64,000 bases of DNA from Candidatus Daviesbacteria bacterium RIFCSPLOWO2_01_FULL_39_23 (lineage in GTDB: Bacteria; Patescibacteriota; Microgenomatia; Daviesbacterales; UBA10151). Each line of letters begins with the position of its first letter. The stretch's first letter is position 1. Positions 4,952 through 26,803 of this stretch are shown in pieces. Location: positions 293,449-357,448 of the forward strand of contig MFDN01000001.1 in the NCBI GenBank assembly GCA_001776935.1, read 5' to 3'. The translations under genes were made by a program, and so were the position numbers. The notes below the pieces were generated by a model. The model was not told where the DNA came from and made no database searches. It was given only the letters and a program-made list of their open reading frames with translations.

Positions 4952-5167
4952 ATGTTTGGATTATTTAGTAAAGTTACAGACCCAGTTTGTAGAATGAAAG
5001 TAGATAAAAACAAAGCTAAATATTCTTCAGAACATAAAGGCGAGAAGTACTATCTTTGTTCTGAAAATTGTAAGAAAAGTTTTGATGAAGAACCAGGAAA
5101 ATATGCCCAGCAAGAAAACATTCCCACAAAGAACTGCTGCCAGCAAAACACTAAATCCTGCTGTTAA
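4952..5167 (+). CDS. YHS/TRASH-domain small metal-binding protein
   Basis: 'DPVCRMKVDKNKAKY...GEKYYLCSENCKKSFDEEPGKY' matches the YHS motif. Strong RBS 'aaggaggt' upstream. Confidence 0.7.
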   Translation: MFGLFSKVTDPVCRMKVDKNKAKYSSEHKGEKYYLCSENCKKSFDEEPGKYAQQENIPTKNCCQQNTKSCC

Positions 5168-6573
5168 ACACAACAACTCAATTTGGAGATATCTTTAGTA
5201 AAAGATAACGCAACTATCTTTAGAGCCTCAGAAAGGGTTGGAAACATCGGCAAAGAGGAAACTACATCGTCAACAGTATTTTTATTTTTAACTAACCACA
5301 TAGCTTGAGCAACTAGGTCACCTGCATTAGGAGACAGAATATGCACCCCAAGAATTACTTTTGTCTCAGGATGAATAATCATTTTAATTAACCCTTCTGT
5401 TCTGCCAATGATATGAGCTTTGGGAACATCGGCAAATGAAACAGTACGGCAAAGACAACTTCCTATTTGTTTTATCTCTTGTTCCTCAGTTAAACCGACT
5501 CCGGCAAGCTGCGGGTCAGTAAAGATAGTCCAAGGTACAGAATGATAATCAATACTATTTTGTGCATTCTTTAGGGCATTTTCTGCTGCTAATGTACCTT
5601 CCCTGCCAGCAGTTGGTTCTTGCCTAATTAGTAAATTTGTTACATCACCTACTGCAAAAATGTTGGCTTGAGATGATTGAAAACCGGGACTTACCTTTAT
5701 AGCTTGTTTCTCATCCACCTCAACATCTGCTTTATCAAGAGCTAATCTTTCGGTATTGGGAGTTTTACCTGTTGCGAGTAATATTTCATCCGCTGATACC
5801 TCTTCTTGTTTATCGTCAACTATGTAAGTAAGTATCTTTTTATCTCCTTCTCTACGGGCAGACTGCACTTGTACACCAGTTCTAATAATTATTCCTTCAT
5901 TGGTAAGAATTTCTGTTAATTTATCAGTTAGTTCTCTTTCTGCCGGAGGGAAAATAGAATCACTTCTTTGTAGAATTGTTACTTTAGTGCCGAATCTTGA
6001 ATACATTTGTGCAAACTCTAAACCTAATGGTCCTGCACCAACTACAATCAGTTCCTTAGGCTGTTTTTTAATTTGCAATGCTTCAATATGAGTTAAATAT
6101 CCTACTTTTTTAATACCATCTATTGGTGGTACAGTTGCAGTAGAACCTGCAGCAATAATAAATTTTTTGGCTTGAAATTTTTGTCCGTCGACTTCTATCT
6201 CGTTAGGGGAAACAAAGGCAGCTTTACCTTCTATATGAGCAATATTTTCTAAACCATTTAAGACTTTCTCGTATTTTTCAGTTCTTAGTTTGGCTACTAA
6301 ATCAAGCTCATGCTGAACAACTTGTGAAAAATCAAAATCTTTAACTTCGATATTAACTCCCGGAATACTGTGGTTCTTGGCAAGATGCATTACCTCACCT
6401 GCCCAAAGAAGTGTTTTTGAGGGAACACAACCAACATTCACACAAGTGCCACCCAAAGGCAACCCTTTATTTACCATCAATGTTTTTGCGCCCAGTTCGT
6501 TGGCTTTAATAGCAGCAGCAAATGCTCCTGCTCCACCACCGACAATAATTAAATCAAATACCTGCATACTCAT
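5164..6573 (-). CDS. merA: Class I pyridine nucleotide-disulfide oxidoreductase, mercuric reductase (MerA)-like core
   Basis: FAD motif 'IVGGGAGAFAAA'. Redox-active 'GGTCVNVGCVPSK'. C-terminal vicinal cysteines '...KLSCCV', typical of MerA rather than Lpd. No NmerA (HMA) domain. Confidence 0.65.
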   Translation of the reverse strand: MSMQVFDLIIVGGGAGAFAAAIKANELGAKTLMVNKGLPLGGTCVNVGCVPSKTLLWAGEVMHLAKNHSIPGVNIEVKDFDFSQVVQHELDLVAKLRTEKYEKVLNGLENIAHIEGKAAFVSPNEIEVDGQKFQAKKFIIAAGSTATVPPIDGIKKVGYLTHIEALQIKKQPKELIVVGAGPLGLEFAQMYSRFGTKVTILQRSDSIFPPAERELTDKLTEILTNEGIIIRTGVQVQSARREGDKKILTYIVDDKQEEVSADEILLATGKTPNTERLALDKADVEVDEKQAIKVSPGFQSSQANIFAVGDVTNLLIRQEPTAGREGTLAAENALKNAQNSIDYHSVPWTIFTDPQLAGVGLTEEQEIKQIGSCLCRTVSFADVPKAHIIGRTEGLIKMIIHPETKVILGVHILSPNAGDLVAQAMWLVKNKNTVDDVVSSLPMFPTLSEALKIVALSFTKDISKLSCCV

Positions 6574-6602
6574 ATAAGTATAAAACAGAAATTAACAAAA
6601 GT

Positions 6603-6821
6603 TTAGCAATTTGCTTCTGCATATTGATAAGGGTTCTTATCAAACTCGGCTTTACAATTTTCAGAGCAGAAACCATATTCTTTGCCCTCGTAAGTGCTTT
6701 TATATTTTGTCTTTTCCAAATTAACCTTCATCCCACAAATTGGGTCTTTAACTTCATTTATTTCTTCATCAACCTTTTTGGCAATATTTTTTACAATCTT
6801 AGGTATCTTCAAAGGTTTCAC
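6603..6821 (-). CDS. YHS/TRASH-domain small metal-binding protein
   Basis: 'DPICGMKVNLEKTKYKSTYEGKEYGFCSENCKAEFDKNP'. Confidence 0.7.
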   Translation of the reverse strand: MKPLKIPKIVKNIAKKVDEEINEVKDPICGMKVNLEKTKYKSTYEGKEYGFCSENCKAEFDKNPYQYAEANC

Positions 6822-6833
6822 CTCCTCTATGAA

Positions 6834-7508
6834 CTATAATTTATCTATCTCTGTCGATAGCTCGTTATTTCTTACAGCCATAGTAACATCATCCCTGACA
6901 AACTTTATAATCCCTTCCTTATTGATTATTACATAAGTATGTCCAGGGAATTGGCCTTTATGCATTGATGAAGGAAGAGTTAAAACTCCATATTTTTGGG
7001 AAATCTGCCTGTTGCTGTCAAAAAGTACAGTTGCCCCCGCAAGCTCGGGCATTTTATCTATAGCTTGTTTCCAATTATTTTTTGGATCAGCTGTAATATT
7101 GAAAATAACTGCCTTTTTAGCCAGTTCTGTATCCTTACCAAAAGCTGCGATTTGGTTCCAGCAAGCCGGATAGCACATTAACCCTTCATTAAAAAAGAGA
7201 ATGACATTTTTGCCCTTTAATTCACTCAAGATGATCTTTTTCCCACTATAGTCTTCTAGAGTAAAGTCGGGAGCAATCTTGCCAAGTAAACTATTAAAAA
7301 TAGTAGCATCAGCGGGAGTCCCTCCTCCGTGATGACTGGCCATAGAGTTAGCTTGTGCATTCTGGTTTGTTTGAGTAGTTGGTTGGTTGGCAGAAACCTC
7401 ATCTCCCTTAGTATTTATATTTATCTGGATATTAAAATTACTAACAAGTAAGATTAAAGCTAATACTACCCCTGTTCCTAAAATTGCAATAAGTCCATTT
7501 TTGTTCAT
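6834..7508 (-). CDS. Membrane-anchored thioredoxin-fold protein (redoxin/SCO-like, CxxxC)
   Basis: N-terminal TM segment, Q/T-rich linker, then 'LKGKNVILFFNEGLMCYPACWNQIAAF' (CxxxC in a thioredoxin-like context). Paralog of 8383-8994. Confidence 0.55.
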   Translation of the reverse strand: MNKNGLIAILGTGVVLALILLVSNFNIQININTKGDEVSANQPTTQTNQNAQANSMASHHGGGTPADATIFNSLLGKIAPDFTLEDYSGKKIILSELKGKNVILFFNEGLMCYPACWNQIAAFGKDTELAKKAVIFNITADPKNNWKQAIDKMPELAGATVLFDSNRQISQKYGVLTLPSSMHKGQFPGHTYVIINKEGIIKFVRDDVTMAVRNNELSTEIDKL

Positions 7509-7512
7509 AGTT

Positions 7513-8379
7513 TCACCTCCTTTTCTTCAAAGAGATAAATTGTTTAACAGCAAGATAAACAATAGATAAGGCAATGCCAACGAAAATAACTGCCCAACCT
7601 ATTTCGGGAATAATCTGAGTAAACTGGCTGATAGATTTTATGAATTTTGTCATATAGATATTTAGTGCCACCTGATACGAATTATGGGAAGTGAGTTGGC
7701 TGGTTCTTGCGAGATAGATGATAACAACTCCTAAAATCAGAAACATTAACCCTGAGAAAAGATTAGCAAAGGTAAGACTAATCTTTTGACCCAACACGGT
7801 ATAAGAGATGCTTTTCCTGAAAGCAAAAAACTTCTTGGTAAAGTCAACTTTGTCCAAGAAAAGGGCAATGAGGAAGAGAGGAAGAACCATTCCCAGCACA
7901 TAAGCCAGAGTATAAACTCCTCCCAAGAAAACTGAACCAGGAAGCATTGATAAGGTCAGTACTCCTGCCAGCACCGGAGCGCAACAAGTAGTAGCAATGG
8001 CAGAAAATATACCCAGGACGTACACCGATATAAAATCCTGCCTCTTTAACTCCGGATGAACACTAAAAGGTAGCGAAAATTGTTGTCCTAAAAGTAAAGT
8101 CATACCCAGGAAGAGCAAGAAAACTCCACCTACAAGAAAGATTACGTCATGATACTGACTGAAAATTTGAGTGAGCAACGATACGCCAAGACCAATTGGA
8201 AGAAAAATAGTTAAGATACCCAGGAAATAAACAAAGGTCATCAAAAATACTGTGGCTTTTTGTTTAAAGATGGAAGCAAAATAGCTTGGCAAAAGCACAG
8301 TGATACAACAGGGTGCAAAGAGCGCGGCAATCCCTGCCACAAATGAAGCTATAAATGATGCACTAACTAAAAGATCCAT
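7513..8379 (-). CDS. ccdA: CcdA/DsbD-family transmembrane thiol-disulfide electron transporter (cytochrome c biogenesis protein CcdA-like)
   Basis: Multi-TM protein with 'FAPCC' and 'TTCCAPV' transmembrane cysteine motifs typical of CcdA/DsbD beta-domain. Confidence 0.7.
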   Translation of the reverse strand: MDLLVSASFIASFVAGIAALFAPCCITVLLPSYFASIFKQKATVFLMTFVYFLGILTIFLPIGLGVSLLTQIFSQYHDVIFLVGGVFLLFLGMTLLLGQQFSLPFSVHPELKRQDFISVYVLGIFSAIATTCCAPVLAGVLTLSMLPGSVFLGGVYTLAYVLGMVLPLFLIALFLDKVDFTKKFFAFRKSISYTVLGQKISLTFANLFSGLMFLILGVVIIYLARTSQLTSHNSYQVALNIYMTKFIKSISQFTQIIPEIGWAVIFVGIALSIVYLAVKQFISLKKRR

Positions 8380-8382
8380 AAT

Positions 8383-8994
8383 TTAAAGTTTTTCAATCTC
8401 TGCTATTAACTCTTGGTTTCTTGTTCCCATCTGAGGATCGTCTTTAACGAAACGGACAATTCCATCTTTATCAACAATTATATAAGTATGACCAGGGAGC
8501 TGACCTTTATGCATTGAAGAAGGTAGGGTGAGCACGTTATACAAGATAGAAGTCTTTTTGTCAGTATCTAATAGAACAGTTGATTGAGCTAATTCCGGCA
8601 TCTTGTCAATTGCTCCTTTCCAGTCATCTTTTTTGTCATTAACAATTGATAGTACAACAGTATTTTTGTCAGTAAAATCTTTAGCTTGTCCAAAGGCAGC
8701 AATCTGATTCCAGCAGGCCGGATAGCATACTAAGCCTTCATTGAAAAAGAGAATGACATTTTTACCTTTAAGACTGCTCAGAGTAATTTTATCGCCGGTG
8801 TAACTCTCCAGGGTAAAATCAGGAGCAGGTTTACCAATTAAATCATTAAGTGGAGTACTTGCATTTTGATTAGTAGAAGAACCTTGATTACTGCTGCCGC
8901 TTAGTAAAAAGACCCCACCAACAAGTATGGCAACTGTGACTAACACACCAATCATAATAATTATCTTATCTTTACCCATATTTTTTAGTGGCAA
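8383..8994 (-). CDS. Membrane-anchored thioredoxin-fold protein (redoxin/SCO-like, CxxxC), paralog of 6834-7508
   Basis: 'LKGKNVILFFNEGLVCYPACWNQIAAF' is almost identical to the motif in 6834-7508. Confidence 0.55.
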   Translation of the reverse strand: MPLKNMGKDKIIIMIGVLVTVAILVGGVFLLSGSSNQGSSTNQNASTPLNDLIGKPAPDFTLESYTGDKITLSSLKGKNVILFFNEGLVCYPACWNQIAAFGQAKDFTDKNTVVLSIVNDKKDDWKGAIDKMPELAQSTVLLDTDKKTSILYNVLTLPSSMHKGQLPGHTYIIVDKDGIVRFVKDDPQMGTRNQELIAEIEKL

Positions 8995-9212
8995 GACTTA
9001 CCATCTTGCTTAGTATTATCCTTTCCTTCCTGATTATGATCCCCATGGCCTTTCATCATGAATATATGCATCAAAGGGCAGGCCAGAAAAATACCAAAGT
9101 AGAGCAAGCTTCCAAAAGGGACTTTAAAAATTGTGACAGCTATAATTGTCCCCGCAAGAACTACTAAACAACCTAGCAACAATTTACCCTTAGTAAGTTT
9201 CAAAGATCCCAT
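8985..9212 (-). CDS. Small membrane protein with His-rich tail (DUF2933-like)
   Basis: Two predicted TM helices then 'MKGHGDHNQEGKD...KSCH'. This family is frequent in copper-resistance loci. Confidence 0.35.
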   Translation of the reverse strand: MGSLKLTKGKLLLGCLVVLAGTIIAVTIFKVPFGSLLYFGIFLACPLMHIFMMKGHGDHNQEGKDNTKQDGKSCH

Positions 9213-9679
9213 TTAAAGCTCCTTTCAACAACTCCGCCTACATTTTTAATTTTTAACTCCAGCGACCTAGGTTTTGGTGAAATTGGATTAAATTTCAGAA
9301 CACCATTACGATGATGACCACCGGGGGGCGAGCCGTCCCAAGAGGTAGGTTTATATGCCTTTCCTTGATCATCCAAAAGTTCAGAAACAGCGACCAAGTC
9401 TTCACTAAGCTCTTCTGAATGAGTATTTAAGGTGATATCAAAATCCCAACTGGAAGAACCACTTTCTAAACTGCGTGGAGTGACGGCAACAGTAACAGGC
9501 CCCTCACTACTCTCTTTTGTTTTTTGGTTGCTATTACTATTTGTGTTTTGGGTTGGGTTAGCTGTATTAGTAGATATGCTTGGATTTTTTGGGCCTATGT
9601 TTATAGAAAAATTATCCTTAAGATTAACCACAAAAATTACAAGTAATATAACAATAAAGATAATAGTTAAGTTTTTCAT
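9200..9679 (-). CDS. Secreted hypothetical protein
   Basis: Signal/anchor sequence, N/T/Q-rich linker, ~100-aa C-terminal domain. No recognisable motif. Confidence 0.4.
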   Translation of the reverse strand: MKNLTIIFIVILLVIFVVNLKDNFSINIGPKNPSISTNTANPTQNTNSNSNQKTKESSEGPVTVAVTPRSLESGSSSWDFDITLNTHSEELSEDLVAVSELLDDQGKAYKPTSWDGSPPGGHHRNGVLKFNPISPKPRSLELKIKNVGGVVERSFKWDL

Positions 9680-10173
9680 TGTTGAGAAAGTTTTAATACC
9701 TTACTTCCTATGTAAAATATCCCTAAAAGATTAAAAAATAAGCCAATCCAAAAAAATTGAACCTGATATTGACCAATAAAAGTAATTATCCCCGTTACGC
9801 CAAGAATCGGTAATATATTAGTTAAATAATGAGCACAACAGGAAATCATGGTAGCGGTGGAAGTGGTCCCTGTTGTAGCTAATACCTGTCCGGTAGCCTG
9901 TTGTTTAATAGCACCCTTAAGATAGCTGTAAAGGGTAACTTGAACTCCAAAACCTAAAGCAAGACTTATAACGTAATACCAAAATTGGGCGAATTGATCC
10001 CAGGCAAACTTCCACCCAGAAATAAGCGTAATAATCAAAAAATATACAGATAAAAGAATAGAAAAGGCTAACAATCCCTTTAGCAAGGATTTCTTCAAAA
10101 TATCCACATTTACAGTTAAATTATTCATCTTGATTAAGTCTAGCATAAAAGATACTACAATGTGTAGTACCAT
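9676..10173 (-). CDS. Integral membrane protein, hypothetical
   Basis: Four or more hydrophobic helices. Stop/start overlaps with neighbours suggest an operon. Confidence 0.4.
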   Translation of the reverse strand: MVLHIVVSFMLDLIKMNNLTVNVDILKKSLLKGLLAFSILLSVYFLIITLISGWKFAWDQFAQFWYYVISLALGFGVQVTLYSYLKGAIKQQATGQVLATTGTTSTATMISCCAHYLTNILPILGVTGIITFIGQYQVQFFWIGLFFNLLGIFYIGSKVLKLSQQ

Positions 10174-11203: not shown

Positions 11204-11498
11204 ATCTACTAATACAGATTAGTTAAGTAGGACTGCGAATTGGGCTTTGGCAACAACTCGTAAGCATCACCTCCTTAAAAATTAGGTGCTTTAAGGGTAG
11301 GGCCGCGGAGTCTAGGACTTTAAGAATTCATAAACCTTTTAGTAGGTATTCCACTTCCCCTGACTTCCCAGCAAGGGTTCTAAATGACCATTCCTACCCC
11401 AAAGCTGACTTTAAGTTAAACTTAACTTAAAGATAGTGCTAATCATACAAAAAGCGCCATGAAACCGTAGTGAAGAGCCTATGAAGATTTATTCATTT

Positions 11499-14107: not shown

Positions 14108-14353
14108 TTACCCATGCTCATAGATAAATTCACTTGCATATTTCTCTGGACAGTCTTCAAAACGTTGTAAACAATCTTCTGAGCAAAAATAATACAACTT
14201 TCCTTTGTGATATGATCTATACTCTGTTTCGTAAGGTTGAAGTTCTAATTCGCAAATCGGATCTATAACAAATTCTTCTTCGTCAATGGGCACTTCCAAA
14301 TCATCAGAAACTTGTTGTCCAATTACTTTAGAAAACTTCATTTTAATGCTCAT
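14108..14353 (-). CDS. YHS/TRASH-domain small metal-binding protein
   Basis: 'DPICELELQPYETEYRSYHKGKLYYFCSEDCLQRFEDCPEKY'. Confidence 0.65.
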   Translation of the reverse strand: MSIKMKFSKVIGQQVSDDLEVPIDEEEFVIDPICELELQPYETEYRSYHKGKLYYFCSEDCLQRFEDCPEKYASEFIYEHG

Positions 14354-14415: not shown

Positions 14416-14943
14416 CTAGCATTGTTCACTGACTCTGCAAATATAATCTGTTAACTGTTGCTTATCCAAAAAGCCGTAAGCAGGAGATTTTTCTATCCCT
14501 TTAGCATCAAAAATAAACGTAGGGACTCCCGAGATTTTATATTTTTGAGCCTCCTCACCACAAGAATCCAGCCCATACCATTCCCCGTAAAAGTGATCTC
14601 CATGCTCAGGTAGTATTTGATCCAAAACTTTATTTTGGGCAACACAATAAGGACAGGTTTCCGATTCAAAGACTTTAAACTTTAAAGGAGCAGCGGGATT
14701 ACCAGCTTTAATATTAGGACAGTTTTTTTCACCTAACTCAATTTTCTTACTAAACTCAGCCGCAACCATCCTCGGAGGTTTATTTGCAGCTTTCTCAATT
14801 TGAGTAATTTCCTGGCTAGTATTTTTAATTCCTAAGTTTAGGTAAACATTAAAACCAATAAACAGTGTTACTAACACCACTAAAAATAAAGGTGTTTTTT
14901 TAAAAATCTGTTGGTCTGTCCAAACAATTTTTGGTAAGCTCAT
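14416..14943 (-). CDS. Membrane-anchored thioredoxin/DsbA-like thiol-disulfide oxidoreductase
   Basis: N-terminal TM segment. 'ETCPYCVAQ' CxxC in a thioredoxin-like context. Confidence 0.55.
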   Translation of the reverse strand: MSLPKIVWTDQQIFKKTPLFLVVLVTLFIGFNVYLNLGIKNTSQEITQIEKAANKPPRMVAAEFSKKIELGEKNCPNIKAGNPAAPLKFKVFESETCPYCVAQNKVLDQILPEHGDHFYGEWYGLDSCGEEAQKYKISGVPTFIFDAKGIEKSPAYGFLDKQQLTDYICRVSEQC

Positions 14944-15617
14944 ATTGAAATTACTTGTAACGCTAAATAAATTAAATAAATTCCGGCCAAAATAATCAAT
15001 ACTCCTGCGCTTTTCTGCAATGTTCCCATATACCTTGTTAAAAACTTATGCATGGCGCTTTTTGACAAAGATGAGATGAGAGAAAATAGGATCATCAGGG
15101 ACGACATAGCTAAAGCATAAACTGCAAAATTAATTACTCCTCCAAACATTCCCTTCTGGGCTAATGATTGAAAAATCACCAACAAAAAAATTGGTAAAGT
15201 ACACCCTATCGCCCCAAAAGCATAAGCTACGCCAAAAAGATAGAACCTTCTTCCGCCATTAGTTCTAGTTTGGATAACAAGAGGCGGTCTGACGGCGAAT
15301 TCATAGCCAAGCAGTGTTGATGACCCCATAAATAAAAGGAGTCCGCCGGTAACCAATTCTATCCAGGGAAAAATTGGAGCAATAAGGCGCCCAAAAAGAG
15401 CCAGAATGATGCCAAAGACAATATAAACACTGATAAGTCCTAAGCTGGCTAAGCTGCCAGCCTTAAGGCCAAAAAGAAGCTGTTGTATTTTATTGTTATC
15501 TCCCGTTTCCTGCTTAACATAGTACCCGACGTACGCCGGAATTAAGGCAATACTACATGGAGCAAAGAAAGCCTGCAGACCTGCCAGAAACGAGAAGGAA
15601 ACTAAAACTAGATCCAT
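14940..15617 (-). CDS. ccdA: CcdA/DsbD-family transmembrane thiol-disulfide transporter
   Basis: 'FFAPCSIALIPAY' and 'FGAIGCTLPIF' TM cysteine motifs. 4-nt overlap with the downstream thioredoxin gene. Confidence 0.7.
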   Translation of the reverse strand: MDLVLVSFSFLAGLQAFFAPCSIALIPAYVGYYVKQETGDNNKIQQLLFGLKAGSLASLGLISVYIVFGIILALFGRLIAPIFPWIELVTGGLLLFMGSSTLLGYEFAVRPPLVIQTRTNGGRRFYLFGVAYAFGAIGCTLPIFLLVIFQSLAQKGMFGGVINFAVYALAMSSLMILFSLISSLSKSAMHKFLTRYMGTLQKSAGVLIILAGIYLIYLALQVISI

Positions 15618-15620
15618 ACT

Positions 15621-16205
15621 CTAGAGTGGTGCTTTTTCAGGACCCCGGTCTTCATTTGTTTCCATGAAAGTTTTGATTCGATCCTCATCAATTGTTTGGA
15701 GCTTAAGTAACCTGCCCCATGAAGTTAAAGCAATTGGAACATCAAGGCTGTCCCTTGGGATCATAATCTTTTTACTAACTGAAACAGATCCAAAAATTTG
15801 TTTTAACCTGTCAATATCTTGCTCAGATAAACCATTTGTCTTTGCTGATTCCGTTCCTTCTGTTACTTGATTATCTGTGCCACTGGATGGTTTGTACCAA
15901 AGTATAACGGCTCCGTGTTCCATGCTGTGTATTAGATTCCCATCCGGGATAGGTTTGTCATAGATACCAGCAGGTTGGGAGTTGGCATAATGGGGACCTG
16001 ATGTTGGCGGATTCGTGCTATATTCTTCTTTTGTACTTTCTGGTACATGATTTGCACCCTGACTGGCAATGGCCTCTCCTATTAAAGGTTGGTTTAATTT
16101 TGCCTGATCCTTGGCGCCTTGGATGTTTAGAAACCAGATGCCTCCACCAAGAATAATAACAGTGGCTATTACAACTCCTATAATAATTTTAGTTTCTGTC
16201 GTCAT
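15621..16205 (-). CDS. Secreted protein, DUF3105-like
   Basis: Signal anchor then a domain with 'HSMEHGAVILWYKP'. Family assignment is from memory and is low confidence. Confidence 0.35.
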   Translation of the reverse strand: MTTETKIIIGVVIATVIILGGGIWFLNIQGAKDQAKLNQPLIGEAIASQGANHVPESTKEEYSTNPPTSGPHYANSQPAGIYDKPIPDGNLIHSMEHGAVILWYKPSSGTDNQVTEGTESAKTNGLSEQDIDRLKQIFGSVSVSKKIMIPRDSLDVPIALTSWGRLLKLQTIDEDRIKTFMETNEDRGPEKAPL

Positions 16206-16212
16206 ATATTTC

Positions 16213-16560
16213 TCATTTTTTTGTAACAGTAATATTTATATTGAAAAGTTTGCTCAAAAAACCGGAAGAATTCATCCTCCACATTAGGAATTGGTTAAAT
16301 AAAAATGCTCCAATAATTACGATTAAAAGGATCACACTCAACTTTTTCATTAAAGCCTGCGAGTCAGTATTTTTTAGGCTTATGGGAAATATGATTTGTG
16401 TGACCGGCGCTTGCTTTGAAATTTTAAGCTTAGATATCTCTTCTTCCGATATGAAAATATTTTGCAAAGAATGGCGAAACAGGAAGTAAAGTATGCCTCC
16501 GATTATCAGGACGCTACCCAGAAATAGAAAAAAATCATTGTAGTCGGTCAAATTAATCAT
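16213..16560 (-). CDS. Small membrane protein, hypothetical
   Basis: Two hydrophobic helices. Overlaps the next gene by 4 nt. Confidence 0.3.
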   Translation of the reverse strand: MINLTDYNDFFLFLGSVLIIGGILYFLFRHSLQNIFISEEEISKLKISKQAPVTQIIFPISLKNTDSQALMKKLSVILLIVIIGAFLFNQFLMWRMNSSGFLSKLFNINITVTKK

Positions 16561-17840
16561 CTTGCAATTCCATGCCTTCCATCAGAACCTGCGCCACCAT
16601 GTGACTCATGTGGGAGGGCGCTGTCGTTCCCGGTTGCTAACAGATAATCTTCCAGCATTCCTTTTGGATACCACAGGGCATACCAACGATGAGATTCGCC
16701 AACAAGTTGCTCATCTGAATATTTATCGCCGAAATTTGTGATCATAAAGCGGTAAAAGCCCCTGACTGCTTTTGCATGGGCACATCCGCAGTTTTTATTC
16801 ATTGTCACATTATTAGCGCTGCCGCAACAGTAGCTACAAGTCATCATAGTAGAGATCAGCTTTTGATATCTTGTCTCTTGCTCGGTTGAAAGTTTTATGG
16901 AAGTTTCAAATACCCCCCACTTTTTTTGGGCATTGATAGGATCATCAAAAGCAACATCATCAGGAGCATAAAAAGGTTTACCGGTTGCAATCATTACCAC
17001 TTTGGCATCAGCGAGTGCGTTTCCTGAATTTGGGTTGGCAGATACTTCCGTGATTGTCGGCCATTCAAACAAGGAAGTGGTTTTTCCATCAGGATTTATT
17101 TTAGGTGCGATAATAGTGTAGGTGGATTTAGTTTGGATACCAAGTAGCTTTGCTACAAATCCTTTATTTGAAGTCATACCCATTGTAGCAGCAACCTGAG
17201 ACATCAAAAGCTGGTTTACAAGGAAAAGTCCTGCCAAAGAAAAAACAAAAATATTTTGTAGTGGTAAAATGACAAATCGTTTTTGTGCCCCTTGTTTTGC
17301 AACGGAACTTTTAAGATTGTGAGATATATCGTTACACTCCTTGCAATGAATAGCTGCCTTAACTTTGCTAATGCCATAGAGCAATGATCCGATCAAAAGG
17401 ATTAAACTTAAAAATTTAAGTTCTAAACCTTGCAAGGGGAATACAGCTAATCCACCCGCTACACCGATTGCTGATAATAGAAATGCCCCGCAAACAGGGC
17501 AACCCATACTAAAAGCAGCTGCTAATAAACCCCCGAAATTTGCACTGATGTTCTTAGTTTGACTCAACCTGGAATGACGATAAAGCCAAAGGGCAGTGGC
17601 TACGCTTACACCGGATAAAAGAATTATCAAGATTGATGTAGCTATATAGGTGATACCATACAAAACGCTGTATGAACCAAAGTCTCCGCTCTTCATGTTT
17701 TGTAAGAAAGTTTGGATAGTTGTGGTTTTATAAAACAGCCAGTAAGAAAGATAAGAAAATGCCAGAGTTGTATAGAAGGTTACATATCTGTAAAAAGATT
17801 CCCTAAATATAATTTTTAATGATGTTAATATTGTATACAT
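16557..17840 (-). CDS. Polytopic membrane protein with intramembrane CPxC and Cys-rich extracytoplasmic C-terminal domain
   Basis: 'SMGCPVCGAFLLSAIG' (MerT/CcdA-like intramembrane CxxC), 'CKECND', and a C-terminal soluble domain with 'TCSYCCGS...NKNCGCAHAK'. Confidence 0.45.
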   Translation of the reverse strand: MYTILTSLKIIFRESFYRYVTFYTTLAFSYLSYWLFYKTTTIQTFLQNMKSGDFGSYSVLYGITYIATSILIILLSGVSVATALWLYRHSRLSQTKNISANFGGLLAAAFSMGCPVCGAFLLSAIGVAGGLAVFPLQGLELKFLSLILLIGSLLYGISKVKAAIHCKECNDISHNLKSSVAKQGAQKRFVILPLQNIFVFSLAGLFLVNQLLMSQVAATMGMTSNKGFVAKLLGIQTKSTYTIIAPKINPDGKTTSLFEWPTITEVSANPNSGNALADAKVVMIATGKPFYAPDDVAFDDPINAQKKWGVFETSIKLSTEQETRYQKLISTMMTCSYCCGSANNVTMNKNCGCAHAKAVRGFYRFMITNFGDKYSDEQLVGESHRWYALWYPKGMLEDYLLATGNDSALPHESHGGAGSDGRHGIAR

Positions 17841-17842
17841 AA

Positions 17843-19063
17843 TTATTGTTGCGCTCCGCTTGGCGTGGCTGATGGTGTAGCTGACTGAACCTTACCCACT
17901 ATCTGATTAGTTGTTAAATCCTTATAAACGACACCTCTCAGTTGTTGCATTTCCCTAAACACATACCAGCCGTCTGTTTCCACTGTCCCCACATTTTTCC
18001 AAACATTCTTCAAATTCGTATACTGATCTGATTCGGGTGACGTAAGAATAGTAGGAATTTTGGTAATCTTATACTTGCTAATCAAACCCTGTCCCTCACC
18101 TGAAGACACATCAACAGTCCGTTCAGACCGGATACCTACACCATATCCTTGTTTAAGAATAGGTTTTTGAACCGCATCTGCTTTATAACAATCGCTACAG
18201 TTAGAGTCAGTTAAATAGATTAAATCAACTAAACCTAAGATTTGATTCTTCTCTAAATCTCTATATGGTAAAAATAAATTGCGTGCTACGTAAGTTTTAT
18301 CTTGCTCAACCGTACCAATATTTGCCCAGCTTGATTTAACATTGTCGTAGAAATCTATATCAGATGAAAGAACGAAAGTTGGCAGCTTGGTAATTTTGTA
18401 CTGATTGATAATTCTTTGTCCCTCAAAGGAATTCCATACGATTTCTTTTTGATCCACGATTTTTATTCCGGATTTTTTGAAACTCTCTAATGTTAACTTA
18501 GGATCGATACACTCCGTGCAAGACGGATCAGTCAGTATAGTTGCAATTACCTTACCCACTTCTTGTTTGCTGTCAGTATCAATAAAAACAGGAGTAACTT
18601 TGGTAAAGACAAAATTATTATTTTTTATCTCACCATTGTTTTTAACAAAACCCTCAAGATTGCTTTTGGTTACTTCTCCTGAAACAATATAAGCTGGAAT
18701 TCTTTTAATAGCTAACTCTTTAATAGAGGCGCTGGCTTCCGGTGAATCAAAGTTTAATGTAATTTCGTCTTCTACTTTAACATTTTGCTTCTTAAAGTCA
18801 TTGACAGCAGCATCAATGTTAAAGCAGTCCTGACAACCAGGTACAGAAATTTTAACAATTTTGACATTGGCTGGTCGGGCTGCTTCTTTTGCAGCAGCAA
18901 TATTTTTATTGACAGCAACAAGGGTTTTAGTAGAAACAAGCGCTCCTATAACAGTGGCGGTAAGCGTGACAATCAAAATTATCTTTGGCCATGTAATATT
19001 TAGCTTCTTTTTCTTGCTACTTAACCTCGAGCCGATACTAGATACAACATCTTTCCTGTTCAT
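17843..19063 (-). CDS. Membrane-anchored protein with three tandem thioredoxin-like CxxC repeats
   Basis: Three ~100-aa repeats each with Cx[DE]C: 'PGCQDCFNIDAAV', 'PSCTECIDPK', 'SNCSDCYKADAV'. Confidence 0.5.
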   Translation of the reverse strand: MNRKDVVSSIGSRLSSKKKKLNITWPKIILIVTLTATVIGALVSTKTLVAVNKNIAAAKEAARPANVKIVKISVPGCQDCFNIDAAVNDFKKQNVKVEDEITLNFDSPEASASIKELAIKRIPAYIVSGEVTKSNLEGFVKNNGEIKNNNFVFTKVTPVFIDTDSKQEVGKVIATILTDPSCTECIDPKLTLESFKKSGIKIVDQKEIVWNSFEGQRIINQYKITKLPTFVLSSDIDFYDNVKSSWANIGTVEQDKTYVARNLFLPYRDLEKNQILGLVDLIYLTDSNCSDCYKADAVQKPILKQGYGVGIRSERTVDVSSGEGQGLISKYKITKIPTILTSPESDQYTNLKNVWKNVGTVETDGWYVFREMQQLRGVVYKDLTTNQIVGKVQSATPSATPSGAQQ

Positions 19064-19087
19064 AATATTTAGACAGTTTGTGCATCA

Positions 19088-19363
19088 CTAGCATCCTCCA
19101 ACCATGGACTGCGGCACGTCCGCATTGCTTCCTGTGCCAGCTCCGCTGTTTGTAGTAGCAGGAGCAGCTTTTACCGTAGACGTACTGGCTTTAGAGCTGA
19201 TACGTACTAATTGAAATGTTTGGAAAAGAGTGATCACAGCTATAAGTCCAAGCACCACAATTTGTAAGTTAGGTTTTGGGACACGCAATACTACAGTATT
19301 ATTGTTTTCTTGACTCGGAGAATGACGTGTTGCGTTTGTTTCTATCCGTTGATTTTCTGTCAT
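19088..19363 (-). CDS. Small membrane-anchored protein, hypothetical
   Basis: 91 aa with a single TM segment, upstream of the thioredoxin-repeat gene. Confidence 0.3.
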   Translation of the reverse strand: MTENQRIETNATRHSPSQENNNTVVLRVPKPNLQIVVLGLIAVITLFQTFQLVRISSKASTSTVKAAPATTNSGAGTGSNADVPQSMVGGC

Positions 19364-19440
19364 AAAGCACCTCCTTTCTAATTAGACTACTACTTAGTGT
19401 AGTAGAATAATCTTTGCTTTGTCAATGAGGAAATGGTTAA

Positions 19441-20565
19441 TTAGTGGCTGGAAAGAGGCACCTGGTATTTAGAAACCTGTGCAGTAAATAGTGTCTGATT
19501 CGTCGAAGATTTAGAATTCAATAAAGACTTGTTTACATCTTCTAGATGGTCATCGCATTTCTTCTCTGGTAAGAATGACGCTCCGTTAGTCTTGCTTCGC
19601 AATAGATGTGCTGGGATATAGTTCGAAGGCTTTTCGGTTTCAGCGTGACACTGCTCTGAACAGGATTGATCTGCCGAACATAGAAAATAGGCAGAAGTTT
19701 CCATTGAATTTGTGTGAAAAGCACTAACGGGGGTTTGAAGTAAAAACCAACTCACGAGAACAAATAAAAAAGTTGTAAGTAAGCTAACTATTGATAGTCT
19801 AAGCTTACATTTTGTTCCCGGATCTATCAGTCGATGAATTCTTATTTCAAAATAATCAGGACCGGAAGCATTAGAGACTGTTGCTAAATTTAGATCCGGT
19901 GCGGCTAAGATTTTTTTGAGTGCACTACGGAGAAATATTGATTTTTGTTGATGGCTTATTGTCCATTGGTCTGCTAAAAGTTCATTAATTGCCTCTATGT
20001 TTTTATGAAGTTCCCTGAAAATAGGCAAGAAGAAAAACATTGAAGAAAATGTTTTTCCTATAAGAACTTTAATCGGATCCCGGCTTATCAGATGAGATTG
20101 TTCATGGAGTAAAACTGCTTCCAATTCTTTATCTGTCAAGGATTTTACAAGACCTGTGCTTACCACAATGAAAGGAGAAAAAATACCGCAACAAAAAGAA
20201 AACAAATTTTTATCTTTAACTAAAATAACTTTTTTTGTGAGATTTAAAGCCACTAAAGTTTTTGCTAAGTCTGAAGAGATGGTAATCTTTTTTATAAGCA
20301 ATCGTCTTAAAAAAATGCGAGTTTTAATAAGTTGTATCAGGAAAGACAAAAAGCCTATTCCTAAAACCGCCCCAACTGCCAAAATAAGCGTATTAGGAAG
20401 CGAGCGGGGGATTTCGAGCATGATGTTGGAAATAAATTTTTGGCACAAGAATAAGGTCTTTGAAGTAAATAGAGGGGAAGCTTTATATAGAAGAGTAGTT
20501 ATAACTAGACTGACAGTTAATGCAGAAAGGATGAGTGCATAAAAGCTAATGTTAATTCTTTTCAT
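19441..20565 (-). CDS. BlaR1/MecR1-family M56 sensor metalloprotease (membrane)
   Basis: Four N-terminal TM helices. HExxH 'LLHEQSHLISRDP'. Extracytoplasmic Cys-rich C-terminus ('CSADQSCSEQCHAE'). Immediately downstream of the BlaI-like repressor gene. Confidence 0.7.
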   Translation of the reverse strand: MKRINISFYALILSALTVSLVITTLLYKASPLFTSKTLFLCQKFISNIMLEIPRSLPNTLILAVGAVLGIGFLSFLIQLIKTRIFLRRLLIKKITISSDLAKTLVALNLTKKVILVKDKNLFSFCCGIFSPFIVVSTGLVKSLTDKELEAVLLHEQSHLISRDPIKVLIGKTFSSMFFFLPIFRELHKNIEAINELLADQWTISHQQKSIFLRSALKKILAAPDLNLATVSNASGPDYFEIRIHRLIDPGTKCKLRLSIVSLLTTFLFVLVSWFLLQTPVSAFHTNSMETSAYFLCSADQSCSEQCHAETEKPSNYIPAHLLRSKTNGASFLPEKKCDDHLEDVNKSLLNSKSSTNQTLFTAQVSKYQVPLSSH

Positions 20566-20591
20566 ATCAATCTTAAACGGTAAAGTCTGTT

Positions 20592-20978
20592 TTAACCTTC
20601 GCTTAGTTTTTTTAACAGATCTTGTCGTTTCTTTGGACTGATTTTTTGAATTTCTTTTATAAAATGAGCAAGTACCTCTTCTCCTAGGGTTGAAACTGCT
20701 GATGAAAAGATACCATGAACAGCTTTTGCGACAAATTGTTCTTTAGAAACTTTAGGTTTATACAGGTAGCTTGGCCCACTCATGTGTCTTACCAGGACAC
20801 CCTTATTTACAAGTCTTGCCATGATAGTCATCACAGTTGTATAAGCAATCTGGCGTCTTTTGCTTAAAATTTCAGTCACACTTTTGACTGAAACTGCACC
20901 CTTTTGACCCCAGATAATTTCCATTACCTCGGATTCCAGATCACCTAAAACCTTACCGGTAACACGTTTCTTGTTCAT
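20592..20978 (-). CDS. BlaI/MecI/CopY-family winged-helix transcriptional repressor
   Basis: 'EVMEIIW...AVSVKSVTEIL...YTTVMTIMARLVNKGVLVR' is the penicillinase-repressor fold signature. Confidence 0.8.
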   Translation of the reverse strand: MNKKRVTGKVLGDLESEVMEIIWGQKGAVSVKSVTEILSKRRQIAYTTVMTIMARLVNKGVLVRHMSGPSYLYKPKVSKEQFVAKAVHGIFSSAVSTLGEEVLAHFIKEIQKISPKKRQDLLKKLSEG

Positions 20979-20997
20979 ACTACTAACTATTGTAGTA
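20978..20997. promoter_or_regulatory. Inverted repeat TACTAC-N8-GTAGTA overlapping the blaI-like start codon; candidate BlaI/CopY operator
   Basis: Perfect 6-bp arms. The related dyad TACTAC-N5-GTAGTA lies upstream of the Met-rich gene. Confidence 0.4.
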
Positions 20998-21029
20998 TCT
21001 TACTCTACATTTAGTCAATTAAAGCATAT

Positions 21030-21719
21030 CTACAATAAGTCTTTTTTCTTCTCTTCAAATTCCTTTTTGTCAATTTCTCCTCTAGCATAACGCTCTTTGA
21101 GAATATCTAGAGAGCTTTTGTCTCCTTTACCTTGTCCAGACCGAGCAAGATAACGGATTAAAGTTACTACACCAAGAATGATAAGAAGCCAAAAGGCAAG
21201 CATGAAAATCCATCCCAAAACTCCAAAACCACTCCAACCATTACCGCTCCAGCCATTCATCATTCCAAATCCCGGACCCATCATAGAATTGCCACCTCCT
21301 TTCATCATCCACATCATAGGCATAAATCCAATCCCATTTGCAGGGAGTTGGGCATCAGGATCACAGCTGCTTAATCTTTTTCCCATAGCGATATGCATTT
21401 GCTCTTCTCCTTCTTCACCCATCATTTGTATCATCATGTTGTTCATTGCCTCGTGAGATGAACCCATCATCTGGCCCATGAAGTACTCGCCAAGAGATCC
21501 GTATTGATTATCTGTAATATTTTTACATTCAAGCTGCTTAGACTGCAGTTTATCCCAAATTTCTTTGCCTTCTGCTTCCTCACGGGCAGTATGACCATTT
21601 GGGGAAACTGCTGATTGAGAACCTGCTTGTAGCGGGTTTATTGATCCTTGAGCAAAAGTATTAACAGGCTGGATAATAATGATAAGTAGTAAAATAATGA
21701 TAGTAAGGAATTTTTTCAT
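21030..21719 (-). CDS. Secreted/membrane Met-rich protein with C-terminal SHOCT domain
   Basis: Met-rich stretches 'MMGSSHEAMNNMMIQMMGEEGEEQMH', 'MPMMWMMKGGGNSMMGPGFGMM' (Cu(I)-binding-like). TM segment. C-terminal 'LDILKERYARGEIDKKEFEEKKKDL' (SHOCT). Confidence 0.55.
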   Translation of the reverse strand: MKKFLTIIILLLIIIIQPVNTFAQGSINPLQAGSQSAVSPNGHTAREEAEGKEIWDKLQSKQLECKNITDNQYGSLGEYFMGQMMGSSHEAMNNMMIQMMGEEGEEQMHIAMGKRLSSCDPDAQLPANGIGFMPMMWMMKGGGNSMMGPGFGMMNGWSGNGWSGFGVLGWIFMLAFWLLIILGVVTLIRYLARSGQGKGDKSSLDILKERYARGEIDKKEFEEKKKDLL

Positions 21720-21747
21720 AAATTGGTGATTGTTATATTGCTAATTA

Positions 21748-21764
21748 TACTACAATAAGTAGTA
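21748..21764. promoter_or_regulatory. Perfect palindrome TACTACAATAAGTAGTA upstream of the Met-rich/BlaI/BlaR1 operon; candidate repressor operator
   Basis: 6-bp arms with 5-nt spacer. Shares the 11-mer CTACAATAAGT with 21030-21040. Confidence 0.4.
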
Positions 21765-21805
21765 GGAGATAAACTACGTTTGTTGCTGGCGTAATAAATA
21801 CGTGA

Positions 21806-26400: not shown

Positions 26401-26803
26401 TCACCGATAATAGCCCCCTCCTATGCGCCCACCGATGTAGAGCCACATTATCTTTACTTTTGGCTATATCCATCCAAAGTTGAACCGGTTCTTGGTCAGC
26501 CTTTATCTTATAAGTCCGGAGCACCTTTTTAATCTTCTTTTCATTTTTACCATTACCTCTGGGCTTGTAATCAGCAGGAAGTAAAACAGTGGTGAGATCG
26601 CCCAAGATTTCTCTAAGCAAGTGTCCTATCAAGTGAGTTTTTGATTCCAAATCCGCGTCGCCATAGTAAATCTTGCAAGCATCTTTATAAAACGAGGCTG
26701 TAGCCTCGCCGACTCCACGCTTCAAGCCCTCATATACCTTGGTGTTACGAGGATCCTGAAAACTGAACTGCTTAATTTGTTTTAACTTTGGACGAGATGC
26801 CAT
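23417..26803 (-). CDS. Large (1128 aa) hypothetical cytoplasmic protein, no recognisable motif
   Basis: Long uninterrupted ORF. Trp/Lys-rich, alpha-helical appearance. No Walker, HExxH or nuclease motifs found by eye. Confidence 0.5.
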   Translation of the reverse strand: MASRPKLKQIKQFSFQDPRNTKVYEGLKRGVGEATASFYKDACKIYYGDADLESKTHLIGHLLREILGDLTTVLLPADYKPRGNGKNEKKIKKVLRTYKIKADQEPVQLWMDIAKSKDNVALHRWAHRRGLLSVRPADEQFDYLWDKVQILFAFLIDVVEKNFVHYVDYLDKLLVKPAIAKKDLDEFKQKIPCNAVTLGYFFERLDKPDCLNTLLEKGFFDDPTPPLEHPDGGISYPYWPQLTYLVKMSKIPSAQKKVLEICLGIETDNIRTQAELLEVALNLPGKMSIQIVEKSYSKLDQINSWFHPEKYGALIVYLAKEGFSSEALTLARKVLAVKPDPRKPTVIEGHTFSHDPIAFFDDWHYEKILNENYPGFVDQTGMEAVKVLVDLIQDYVNLSDEGRKSGSKDDYSYIWRPAIEDNSQNHKFGVRDLLVTGLRDACEQFLRSHPDQILVMVKELESKKLSIFKRLSLHLLRLFPKGAEEKIAQELLNKEEFQGESRVTHEYFLLAEAHGSLLNKEQKEQVWSWIMNGADVESYKKWRAQNGHKTTQAEIEKYIKNWQMYHLMPFKDIDPKWKKYFDEIVALVGEPEFPSFRSWSSGGSWGPNSTVSQEQLKEMEPQKVVEFLEKWEPPANDPLDRSREGTGRQLAEQVASDPEKWSKVTQSFGKLDPTYVRSLLGGYRDALKQGKSFDWEPVLELCEIALSKPIQVEKRKPTVPFGEDPDWSWCRNTIVELLSEGMSGHAGKLPPSLREQAWRLIEKLTNDPDPTPKHEEEYLKSHEDPLTLAINSTRGDAMLAAIQYGVWLKESESKEAQGSWSFQAKAPELLKVLDTHLDIKKDSSLAIRAVYGEKLGTLTWLDKSWVISKEDTIFPIDEKQQAYFDAAWEAYIIFVQPFKELLRILGKQYKRALKEAGKHADTKHHLESPDQRLAQHLMVFYWVGELNLSKGGLVDQFFRDAPVSLRAEAVEFIGRNLKEDTTLPEEVKKRIKLLWENRLSTVKRTKGAEDVQELAGFSWWFASGKFDEKWVLEQLLEILTLGCVLEGDHLILEQLPRMTSHYPLEIIRCAEKMVEQDKKGWGVLTWRGELLETIKAVLASKRRDAVQTAKDLANSLVLKGHLEFKDLV

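Follow-up and report, generated by a model that had tools for sequence, protein, structure and literature searches.

The window analysed here, a 64-kb stretch from the genome of Candidatus Daviesbacteria, a small uncultured groundwater bacterium of the candidate phyla radiation (CPR, or Patescibacteria), encodes on its minus strand a Met-rich membrane protein with a SHOCT domain, a winged-helix repressor of the BlaI family, and a BlaR1-type membrane protease of the M56 family. This gene order, SHOCT, blaI-like, blaR1-like, had been given in an earlier note on the same DNA and is confirmed by the open reading frames (ORFs) and by Pfam. Records of identical proteins exist for Candidatus Daviesbacteria. 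The blaI stop codon ends at 20592 and the M56 gene starts at 20565, leaving a gap of 26 nt. Four inverted repeats of the type TACTAC..GTAGTA lie at promoters in the window, two of them ahead of long operons for thiol-disulfide and metal proteins of the cell envelope; these operons form the main output of the system and had been overlooked. The features are listed in Table 1.

Table 1. Regulatory genes, putative operators, promoters, and regulated genes in the window
Feature	Position	Strand	Evidence or remark
SHOCT membrane protein, 229 aa	21030..21719	-	Pfam SHOCT 2e-9
BlaI-family winged-helix repressor, 128 aa	20592..20978	-	Pfam Penicillinase_R 3e-29
M56 (BlaR1-type) membrane zinc protease, 374 aa	19441..20565	-	Pfam M56 3.7e-13, and M48
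HEQSH active-site motif of M56	20106..20092	-	sequence
M56 C-terminal tail, residues 280-374 (95 residues)	19728..19444	-	after the last transmembrane helix
C-x5-C-x3-C motif in M56 tail	19680..19648	-	sequence
Operator 1, ahead of SHOCT gene	21748..21764	-	TACTACTTATTGTAGTA; perfect dyad; 25.5 bits
Operator 2, at blaI start	20981..20997	-	TACTACAATAGTTAGTA; N5, one mismatch; 20.7 bits
Operator 3, just after M56 gene	19388..19404	-	TACTACACTAAGTAGTA; perfect dyad; 27.1 bits, the highest
Operator 4, ahead of operon 2	10153..10169	-	TACTACACATTGTAGTA; perfect dyad; 26.4 bits
blaI promoter TTGACT-18-TACAAT	20989..21018	-	10/12 positions; -10 inside operator 2
p91-operon promoter TTGACA-18-TACACT	19396..19425	-	10/12 positions; -10 inside operator 3
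Operon 1, seven genes, tightly packed	14416..19363	-	ORFs, Pfam, synteny behind dyad
p91	19088-19363	-	operon 1, first gene, behind the best-conserved operator
Triple thioredoxin-like protein, three CxxC modules	17843-19063	-	operon 1
p427, Cys-motif membrane protein	16557-17840	-	operon 1
p115	16213-16560	-	operon 1
DUF3105 protein	15621-16205	-	operon 1
DsbD/CcdA-like protein	14940-15617	-	operon 1
Thioredoxin-like protein	14416-14943	-	operon 1
Operon 2, eight genes	5164..10128	-	ORFs, Pfam, synteny
SCCAH-motif membrane protein	9676-10128	-	operon 2; start revised to ATG 10128
DUF5643-like protein	9200-9679	-	operon 2
DUF2933 protein	8985-9212	-	operon 2
ResA/Bcp-like redoxin, anchored	8383-8994	-	operon 2
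DsbD/CcdA-like protein	7513-8379	-	operon 2, between the two redoxins
Second redoxin, ResA/Bcp-like, anchored	6834-7508	-	operon 2
YHS protein	6603-6821	-	operon 2
Mercuric reductase, merA	5164-6573	-	operon 2, last gene; TIGR02053

Proteins were classified by profile searches with Pfam and NCBIfam, and the M56 and SHOCT proteins were also modelled with AlphaFold2 and the models compared with known folds (by Foldseek for M56). For comparison, loci were fetched with the M56 protein as query, 12 from genomes and 41 from metagenomes, with sources in WWE3, Daviesbacteria, and further Patescibacteria. Loci are considered orthologous if their M56 protein is at least 46% identical, as in 37 cases; the distant class comprises loci with M56 at most 36% identical. 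Conservation within the M56 protein is given for 52 homologous sequences.

The whole window was searched for TACTAC..GTAGTA with a spacer of 3-12 nt. Four dyads were found against 0.01 expected, and none of 100 shuffled sequences reached four. All four are intergenic, and each is located upstream of minus-strand genes. Both dyads named in the earlier note exist, and the search for further copies added two perfect N5 sites, at 19388-19404 and 10153-10169. The site at 21748-21764 had been described as a perfect palindrome, which holds for its 6-nt arms but not for the 5-nt spacer. The site at the blaI gene had been read as TACTAC-N8-GTAGTA (20978-20997); it does overlap the gene start, the last base of the dyad being the A of the ATG, but the N8 register proved the less apt one. 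Scored with the weight matrix described below, the N5 register (20981-20997) reaches 20.7 bits versus 8.2 bits for 20978-20994, and most blaI-proximal sites in orthologues support N5 alone, those of L006 and L001 fitting only N8. The N8 reading was demoted to an alternative because N5 scores higher and is shared by most orthologous sites.

The operator weight matrix was trained on 65 distinct sites, all from other genomes, with the window sites excluded. It finds exactly the four window sites, at 20.7-27.1 bits; the next match in the window scores 8.2 bits, and the best in 20 shuffles 13.6 bits. In the loci with M56 at least 46% identical (464 kb) it yields 76 hits, and in 273 kb of loci with only a distant M56 (at most 36%) or only SHOCT homologues it yields none. 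Across the 65 sites the arms are essentially invariant and the spacers variable, and the left arm with its next base gives TACA in 59, which is the published half-site core of BlaI and MecI (PMC1935004). The 6-N5-6 geometry equals that of the experimentally defined operator of a BlaI-family protein in C. thermocellum, composed of inverted GTCTAT repeats 5 nt apart (PMC8457756), and the inner AC-N5-GT core equals the PetR core, GAC-N5-GTC. An operator of M. tuberculosis BlaI was also sought for half-site comparison and not found in the papers searched; a presumed similar 6-N5-6 motif of that protein was not counted as evidence.

The dyads occupy recurrent positions in the 37 orthologous loci, namely the blaI promoter, the spot right behind the M56 gene and in front of the operon for p91, the triple thioredoxin-like protein, p427, p115, and DUF3105, with or without CcdA and thioredoxin genes at its end, and the region ahead of the operon for the SCCAH-motif protein, DUF5643, DUF2933, redoxin, CcdA, redoxin, and YHS. 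By a hand tally, the dyad after the M56 gene is present in about 29 of the 34 orthologous loci that have downstream sequence. Occasional further dyads precede an ICMT-like gene, the SHOCT gene, and a BNR-like gene. The regulator genes that accompany the dyads in related loci are blaI and M56, with CsoR and two-component genes being only sporadic.

The constancy of the motif is matched in the regulator. The recognition helix AYTTVMT(I/V)M (AYTTVMTIM in the window) hardly varies among orthologues of 53% identity or more; in a 39%-identical relative it reads SFNTVMTVM, and the locus of that relative has no dyad. Thus the BlaI-like protein is the likely binder of the dyads, which by their conservation, promoter overlap, co-occurrence with blaI-M56, and co-variation with the recognition helix appear to be the repressor operators that had been proposed. 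Taken on its own, the assignment of operators and regulon seems to us highly probable.

All four sites lie at promoters, and three of them overlap the -10 element. In a scan for sigma-70-like promoters that covered 9-22.5 kb of the window, the two best candidates were the blaI and p91 promoters, and in both the -10 hexamer corresponds to operator positions 4-9. Both hexamers of the blaI promoter are conserved in orthologous loci, and the TTGACA of the p91 promoter is present in 12/12 aligned loci. At the SHOCT promoter, the right arm of operator 1 overlaps a TATAAT -10 box (21749..21744), and operator 4 is located just upstream of an extended -10 element, TGCTAGACT (10145..10137); the position of this operator and the downstream TGnTAnAnT are conserved in 10 loci. 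Since the operators enclose, overlap, or abut the -10 element at four promoters, bound repressor would exclude RNA polymerase. The ATG of blaI and that of the SCCAH-protein gene follow the predicted -10 by only 7-11 nt, and neither is preceded by a Shine-Dalgarno sequence (20976-21018 and 10126-10145); because of this short distance both mRNAs are probably leaderless. The p91 gene has a strong ribosome-binding site, AAGGAGG.

The repressor matches Penicillinase_R (PF03965) with 102 bits (cut-off 22.6) over residues 11-126 of 128. Its best NCBIfam match is CopY_TcrY (TIGR02698), with 68.5 bits, below the cut-off of 121.95, and its score is far below the NCBIfam BlaI cut-off. None of its 128 residues is a cysteine, hence there is no CxC motif, and the orthologues have 0-1 Cys. 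The lack of Cys together with the score under the cut-off shows that the protein is not CopY, and a CopY-like mechanism, as suggested earlier, is not supported. The nearest solved structure is 2g9w (2e-12), labelled in the database as a conserved hypothetical protein, which we take to be M. tuberculosis BlaI, Rv1846c. The repressor also aligns to S. aureus BlaI and MecI. S. aureus BlaI is cut at N101-F102 (PMC1935004), and the aligned residues of the window protein are H105-F106. In 2g9w this position is H-F, and in all repressor orthologues it is H-F or Y-F, which is consistent with, although it does not prove, inactivation of the repressor by proteolysis.

The protease scores 49.7 bits with Peptidase_M56 in Pfam (cut-off 31) and 29 bits with the NCBIfam profile blaR1_generic (cut-off 400). 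In addition to the HEQSH active site it carries an E195xxxD199 motif. Residues H154, E155, H158, E195, D199, and C125 are invariant in the 52 homologues, and C41, C302, and C306 are conserved in at least 90% of them. Two helices precede the protease domain, and the loop at residues 28-58 contains C41 (conserved in 48/52) and one mostly conserved Met. The core, comprising transmembrane helices and protease domain, was modelled confidently, and its top Foldseek matches are S. aureus BlaR1, 8exp and 8exr (E ~4e-6).

The C-terminal tail of the protease contains four cysteines, at positions 296, 302, 306, and 337. Among the homologues the tail varies from 27 to 97 residues, with the C-x5-C-x3-C motif found in 40/52 and CxxxC in 45/52. 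The pLDDT of the AlphaFold2 model, its residue-wise confidence score, is below 50 in the tail, which is apparently disordered. Pfam detects no transpeptidase or penicillin-binding domain in the protein. The expected absence of a transpeptidase fold at the C-terminus therefore holds by Pfam, by tail length, and by model confidence, and so does the description of the sensor as Cys-bearing without a penicillin-binding domain, with the specification that the Cys-bearing part is a short tail with four Cys and predicted disorder. Lacking a transpeptidase domain, this protease is not a beta-lactam BlaR1.

The operons behind operators 3 and 4, in which adjacent genes overlap or are 3-30 nt apart, account for most of the regulon, which together with SHOCT, blaI, and M56 includes ~18-20 genes. 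Operon 1 may extend to a YHS gene (14108-14353). Its first product, p91, is anchored to the membrane at the N-terminus, continues in a linker rich in Ser/Thr/Ala/Gly, and in 24 distinct orthologues ends in a near-invariant ...PQSMVGGC-COOH; it could serve as a tethered thiol or metal 'arm'. The p427 protein has a transmembrane GCPVCG motif and, in its C-terminal half, the invariant CSYCCGGPxxVTxxxxCGCAHAKAxRG; some relatives encode the C-terminal half alone. The p427 protein was suspected to be related to the PCYCGC family (PF13798), which occurs in the locus L052 described below, and a search did not confirm this.

The first product of operon 2, a membrane protein, carries in a predicted helix an invariant M(I/V)SCCAH(Y/H)L, presumably reminiscent of the Cys pairs in Hg(II) transporters. 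The listed start of its gene, 10173, is probably wrong, the conserved ATG being at 10128. The two redoxins of this operon have ResA and peroxiredoxin as relatives in PDB. The mercuric reductase scores 518.7 bits with TIGR02053 (cut-off 454.45), and its translation contains CVNVGC and a C-terminal CCV. It is the last gene of operon 2 only in this window; in L033 merA (11367-12803) directly follows M56, and in L045 (208-552) it is upstream of blaI. These different positions indicate that merA was recruited to the regulon more than once.

The SHOCT gene had been placed at the head of an operon with blaI and M56. Instead it appears to be an accessory, as blaI has its own promoter and most loci lack SHOCT. 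This promoter, located between SHOCT and blaI, makes co-transcription of the two unnecessary. Upstream of blaI on the same strand the gene is found only in the WWE3 loci L001 and L024; since the sole strong dyad there precedes SHOCT, a SHOCT-blaI-M56 operon is likely in those two loci. It is divergent from blaI in L007 and L025, lies elsewhere within operons in L006 and L044, and is not encoded in most related loci fetched by the M56 protein. Outside the regulon the usual neighbours of the Met-rich SHOCT family are DsrE-like and DUF302 genes, in a compact cassette with neither dyad nor BlaI. Across lineages the SHOCT gene occupies at least five different places within the regulon, of which it is therefore a recurrent yet optional member; a role as fixed first operon gene was ruled out by the variable placement and the dyad-free cassettes. 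These cassettes are in L013-L020, mostly around position 5001 (4644 in L014, 3343 in L015), and one SHOCT-family homologue, P0155, is a DsrE-SHOCT fusion.

The SHOCT protein itself starts with a signal peptide and a helical Met/His ectodomain that includes two invariant Cys; a linker rich in Met and Gly leads to a single transmembrane helix, and the SHOCT domain at residues 204-229 (PF09851 in Pfam, 37.3 bits, cut-off 27) is cytoplasmic. Methionine makes up 13.5% of the ectodomain, as opposed to 2.0% for the window's long ORFs. Homologues of the protein fall into 1910 clusters or more; among the 120 best ones listed, identity is 55-74%, and Babeliales is the one named source. Residues C65, C119, H89, H109, and several Met are invariant in the homologues, which would fit a Met/His metal site in a folded domain outside the cytoplasm. 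A PDB fold search with the AlphaFold2 model of the ectodomain gave no significant match. In the literature on SHOCT and copper we found only a silver-induced SHOCT protein of Haloferax, which is not necessarily homologous.

Several observations place the regulon in a metal context. Genes for YHS and DUF2933 proteins and merA are inside the regulated operons. The same island also contains genes that have no dyad, namely a CopB-type P1B ATPase with two HMBD motifs and a CPH motif (2693-4930, plus strand), a YHS protein (4952-5167), and a CsoR-like repressor (10185-10448), and further genes outside the regulon, including a two-component system and more YHS genes. Near orthologous loci CopA/CopB, CsoR, and CopZ recur. 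In particular, L011 has a dyad (11749-11765) ahead of the gene for a DsbD-cupredoxin fusion, after which comes that for a CopZ-like HMA protein, and CopA lies upstream of blaI there.

A separate case is the high-GC, actinobacterial-type locus L052 (6250-12700), which has no TACTAC dyad. The gene for a PCYCGC-motif protein comes first, then those for a SHOCT-cupredoxin fusion, another SHOCT protein of small size, and BlaI. Next in line are an M56-like protease without a tail, cytochrome c, a plastocyanin-like protein, and an ATPase of the CopB type. This row of genes may form an independent SHOCT-BlaI-M56 system linked to copper. The metal link drawn earlier is thus plausible, given the recurrence of copper and mercury genes by the orthologues, the cupredoxins and CopB of L052, and the published PetRP system. 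From this context, the signal is probably a thiophilic metal (Cu, Hg, or Ag), or thiol damage caused by it, perceived via extracytoplasmic Cys.

On the basis of these data we propose the following chain of events. A dimer of the Cys-free repressor would bind the 17-bp TACTAC-N5-GTAGTA at the four promoters of the window and block RNA polymerase there. The co-expressed M56 protease would have its HEQSH...ExxxD site in the cytoplasm, with C41 in the first loop and C296, C302, and C306 in the tail outside the cell. Once Cu(I), Hg(II), or Ag(I) is bound, or the thiols are oxidised, the protease would be switched on and would then cut the repressor near H105-F106 in the dimerisation domain. Cleavage would derepress the ~18-20 genes for SHOCT, blaI, M56, the thioredoxin/CcdA relay operon, and the redoxin/CcdA/YHS/merA operon. 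The locus would thus be an autoregulated switch of the BlaI/BlaR type that defends the envelope against thiophilic metals and the resulting thiol damage. The gene families, the operators with their conservation and promoter overlap, their co-occurrence with the repressor, and the absence of a penicillin-binding domain are shown by the data; the binding of this repressor to DNA, the orientation of the protease in the membrane, the cleavage, and the kind of signal are steps that we infer, and we consider the chain as a whole probable, if only slightly so. Comparative evidence for the regulatory architecture is strong; the signal and the cleavage step are offered as hypotheses.

Several facts weigh against this scheme. 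L002 and L004 lack the first two Cys of the tail, and L006 has a truncated tail; both the tail and the first loop were modelled at low confidence; and the proposed topology, with a cytoplasmic active site and outside Cys, follows from homology to BlaR1 and the positive-inside rule. The links between repressor and dyad and between protease and repressor rest on sequence comparison. No recognisable family was found for p91, p427, and the SCCAH protein by Pfam, NCBIfam, and PDB sequence searches. The regulon consists mostly of thiol-disulfide oxidoreductases, which would equally fit oxidative or disulfide stress. Finally, no dyad precedes the copper ATPases of these islands, which usually lie beside CsoR, and therefore metal efflux itself is outside the BlaI/M56 switch. 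Their lack of a dyad and their position next to CsoR suggest a division of labour, in which CsoR would deal with cytoplasmic copper and efflux, and BlaI/M56 with the envelope.

The two last points are also the strength of the main competing explanation, in which the same circuit responds to oxidative or disulfide stress of the envelope (oxygen, peroxide, hypochlorite, or electrophiles), the Cys of M56 act as a redox switch, and the regulon restores reduced thiols. Most of the regulated genes encode thioredoxin-like proteins, ResA/Bcp-like redoxins, and DsbD/CcdA electron conduits, the candidate sensor motif consists of Cys, and no dyad precedes the copper ATPases. On the other hand, YHS, DUF2933, merA, the cupredoxin fusion and CopZ-like protein of L011, and the Met/His-rich SHOCT protein are all inside operons or behind operators, and copper is the sole experimentally characterised signal that we found for a BlaI/M56 pair without a sensor domain. 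We regard a purely redox signal as rather unlikely, though deserving serious attention.

Less likely again is an unrelated envelope cue, such as cell-wall damage, beta-lactams, a peptide, or a lipid, acting on the same circuit as in mycobacterial BlaIR or C. difficile CenIR, with the Cys being structural. In its favour, the solved structure nearest to the repressor is 2g9w, presumably M. tuberculosis BlaI. Published non-canonical BlaR tails are likewise disordered, and a transpeptidase domain is present in only ~6% of M56 proteins (PMC13492132). Such a cue is difficult to reconcile with the outputs: no beta-lactamase, penicillin-binding protein, or peptidoglycan hydrolase was recognised by Pfam and tblastn in the regulated operons examined, and the conserved outputs are thiol and metal proteins.

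Alternatively, the dyads could be bound by the CsoR-like protein (10185-10448) or by the response regulator (12908-13609), with BlaI/M56 a mere neighbour; operator 4 is 16 nt downstream of the CsoR-like gene, and the two-component system is located between the two operons. This possibility is very improbable. The CsoR and two-component genes are missing from most dyad loci, in which blaI-M56 accompanies the dyads, and either protein as the binder was ruled out on co-occurrence; moreover, the dyad over the blaI start is the usual autoregulatory layout, and the dyad is lost exactly where the BlaI recognition helix diverges. Finally, that the dyads are RNA-level terminators or attenuators, as a consensus scan calling terminator-like hairpins at 10151-10171 and 19387-19405 could imply, is hardly credible and was ruled out by sequence invariance and promoter overlap, as the arms are invariant over 65 distinct sites with no compensatory changes and only the loop varying, the stems are A+T-rich (3 G-C pairs), three of the four sites have no proper T-run, the sites coincide with -10 hexamers, and an Rfam scan of the whole window found no RNA family.

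The metal-responsive switch proposed here is closest in concept to PetR/PetP of Synechocystis sp. PCC 6803, in which an M56 protease degrades a BlaI-family repressor in a copper-dependent manner (bioRxiv 10.1101/2020.07.31.226407); the concept of a metal response relieved by a protease is therefore not new. The likeness is drawn from the published description. In both systems a BlaI/CopY-family repressor without the CopY metal site is encoded next to an M48/M56 membrane protease without a penicillin-binding domain, and an N5 inverted repeat (GAC-N5-GTC for PetR, TAC-N5-GTA here) lies between or over the promoter hexamers. In PetRP copper triggers the proteolysis of the repressor, whereas the metal trigger suggested here comes from genomic context. 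PetRP has four targets (petE, petJ, slr0601, and slr0602), and PetR also activates, whereas the ~18-20 genes here appear to be subject to repression only. PetP has three helices before the protease domain rather than two, and no C-terminal extension; its proposed ligands are two Met in the loop between transmembrane helices 2 and 3, in contrast to the Cys-motif tail and loop Cys of the protease described here, in which the corresponding loop is that at residues 28-58 with C41 and one mostly conserved Met. The hosts differ as well, being cyanobacteria and CPR bacteria, respectively. What is new relative to PetRP is thus the candidate sensor, the envelope thiol/metal regulon, and the CPR host.

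The classical pairs BlaI/BlaR1 and MecI/MecR1 of S. aureus and B. licheniformis share with this locus the adjacent genes for a winged-helix repressor and an M56 protease, and autoregulation, which is predicted here, by an operator over the promoter. The fold of the protease core is the same, and the scissile bond aligns (N101-F102 in BlaI, H105-F106 here; PMC1935004). The differences are the absence here of a transpeptidase-like sensor domain and of beta-lactamase or PBP2a outputs, the operator (TACANNTGTA core in BlaI/MecI (PMC1935004) versus TACTAC-N5-GTAGTA), and scores of the two proteins far below the NCBIfam BlaR1 and BlaI cut-offs. CopY, TcrY, and CopR of Firmicutes belong to the same winged-helix family and have a similarly copper-linked genomic context, but CopY senses Cu(I) directly by C-terminal CxC motifs and needs no protease (PMC7253601), whereas the repressor considered here is Cys-free; their cop box, RNYKACANNYGTMRNY, also differs from the dyad.

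Most members of the BlaR family have no sensor domain, and for the larger part of these the signal is unknown (PMC13492132; PvmSR preprint). Among such non-canonical systems, M. tuberculosis Rv1846c/Rv1845c, C. difficile CenIR, and P. aeruginosa PvmSR have, like the Daviesbacteria pair, a short or disordered M56 C-terminus and no transpeptidase domain. Their signal is unknown or not a beta-lactam, and their regulons include cell-wall hydrolases, ATP synthase, or virulence genes, with no Cys-motif tail or thiol/metal regulon reported.

On the output side, the regulon resembles Scs and the DsbD/CcdA-ResA/TlpA systems, in which membrane conduits feed anchored thioredoxin-fold proteins that guard envelope thiols under copper stress. 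This likeness extends no further than domain families; Scs is not known to be under BlaI/M56 control, and the operons described here add p91, p427, and the SCCAH protein, whose families have no known relatives. The suppressor of copper sensitivity ScsC has been described (PMC8900818). In the literature searched we found no description of this repressor/protease family or its regulon.

According to one recent count, about 94% of M56/BlaR-like proteases lack a penicillin-binding domain, and the cue that they sense is an open question (PMC13492132). As a tentative and rather speculative extension, many CPR bacteria (WWE3, Daviesbacteria, and relatives) may share a self-contained envelope defence in which the disordered Cys tail of M56 senses soft metals or thiol oxidation directly, and the main output is a previously undescribed thiol relay outside the cytoplasm that might involve the tethered PQSMVGGC-COOH protein, the triple-thioredoxin protein, and the CSYCCG...CGCAHA membrane protein. 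If true, the many 'sensor-less' BlaR proteins would gain their first ligand class that can be predicted. The near-invariant operator allows the regulon to be read straight from sequence, and, along with the short conserved Cys motif and the stress-specific outputs, it makes the question of the ligand testable in a heterologous host. The analysis also shows that CPR bacteria with reduced genomes spend ~13 kb and one dedicated regulator on thiol/metal protection of the envelope, and the conserved Cys-motif proteins of no known family are candidates for a new thiol relay.

Two minor observations concern the window and the comparison set. Past the DUF218 and hydrolase genes, a 1128-aa ORF (23417-26803, minus strand) has no Pfam hit. 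The records of L002, L004, L006, L010, and L012, from binchicken bins, are titled 'uncultured Gammaproteobacteria bacterium' despite a typical CPR locus, and look mislabelled.

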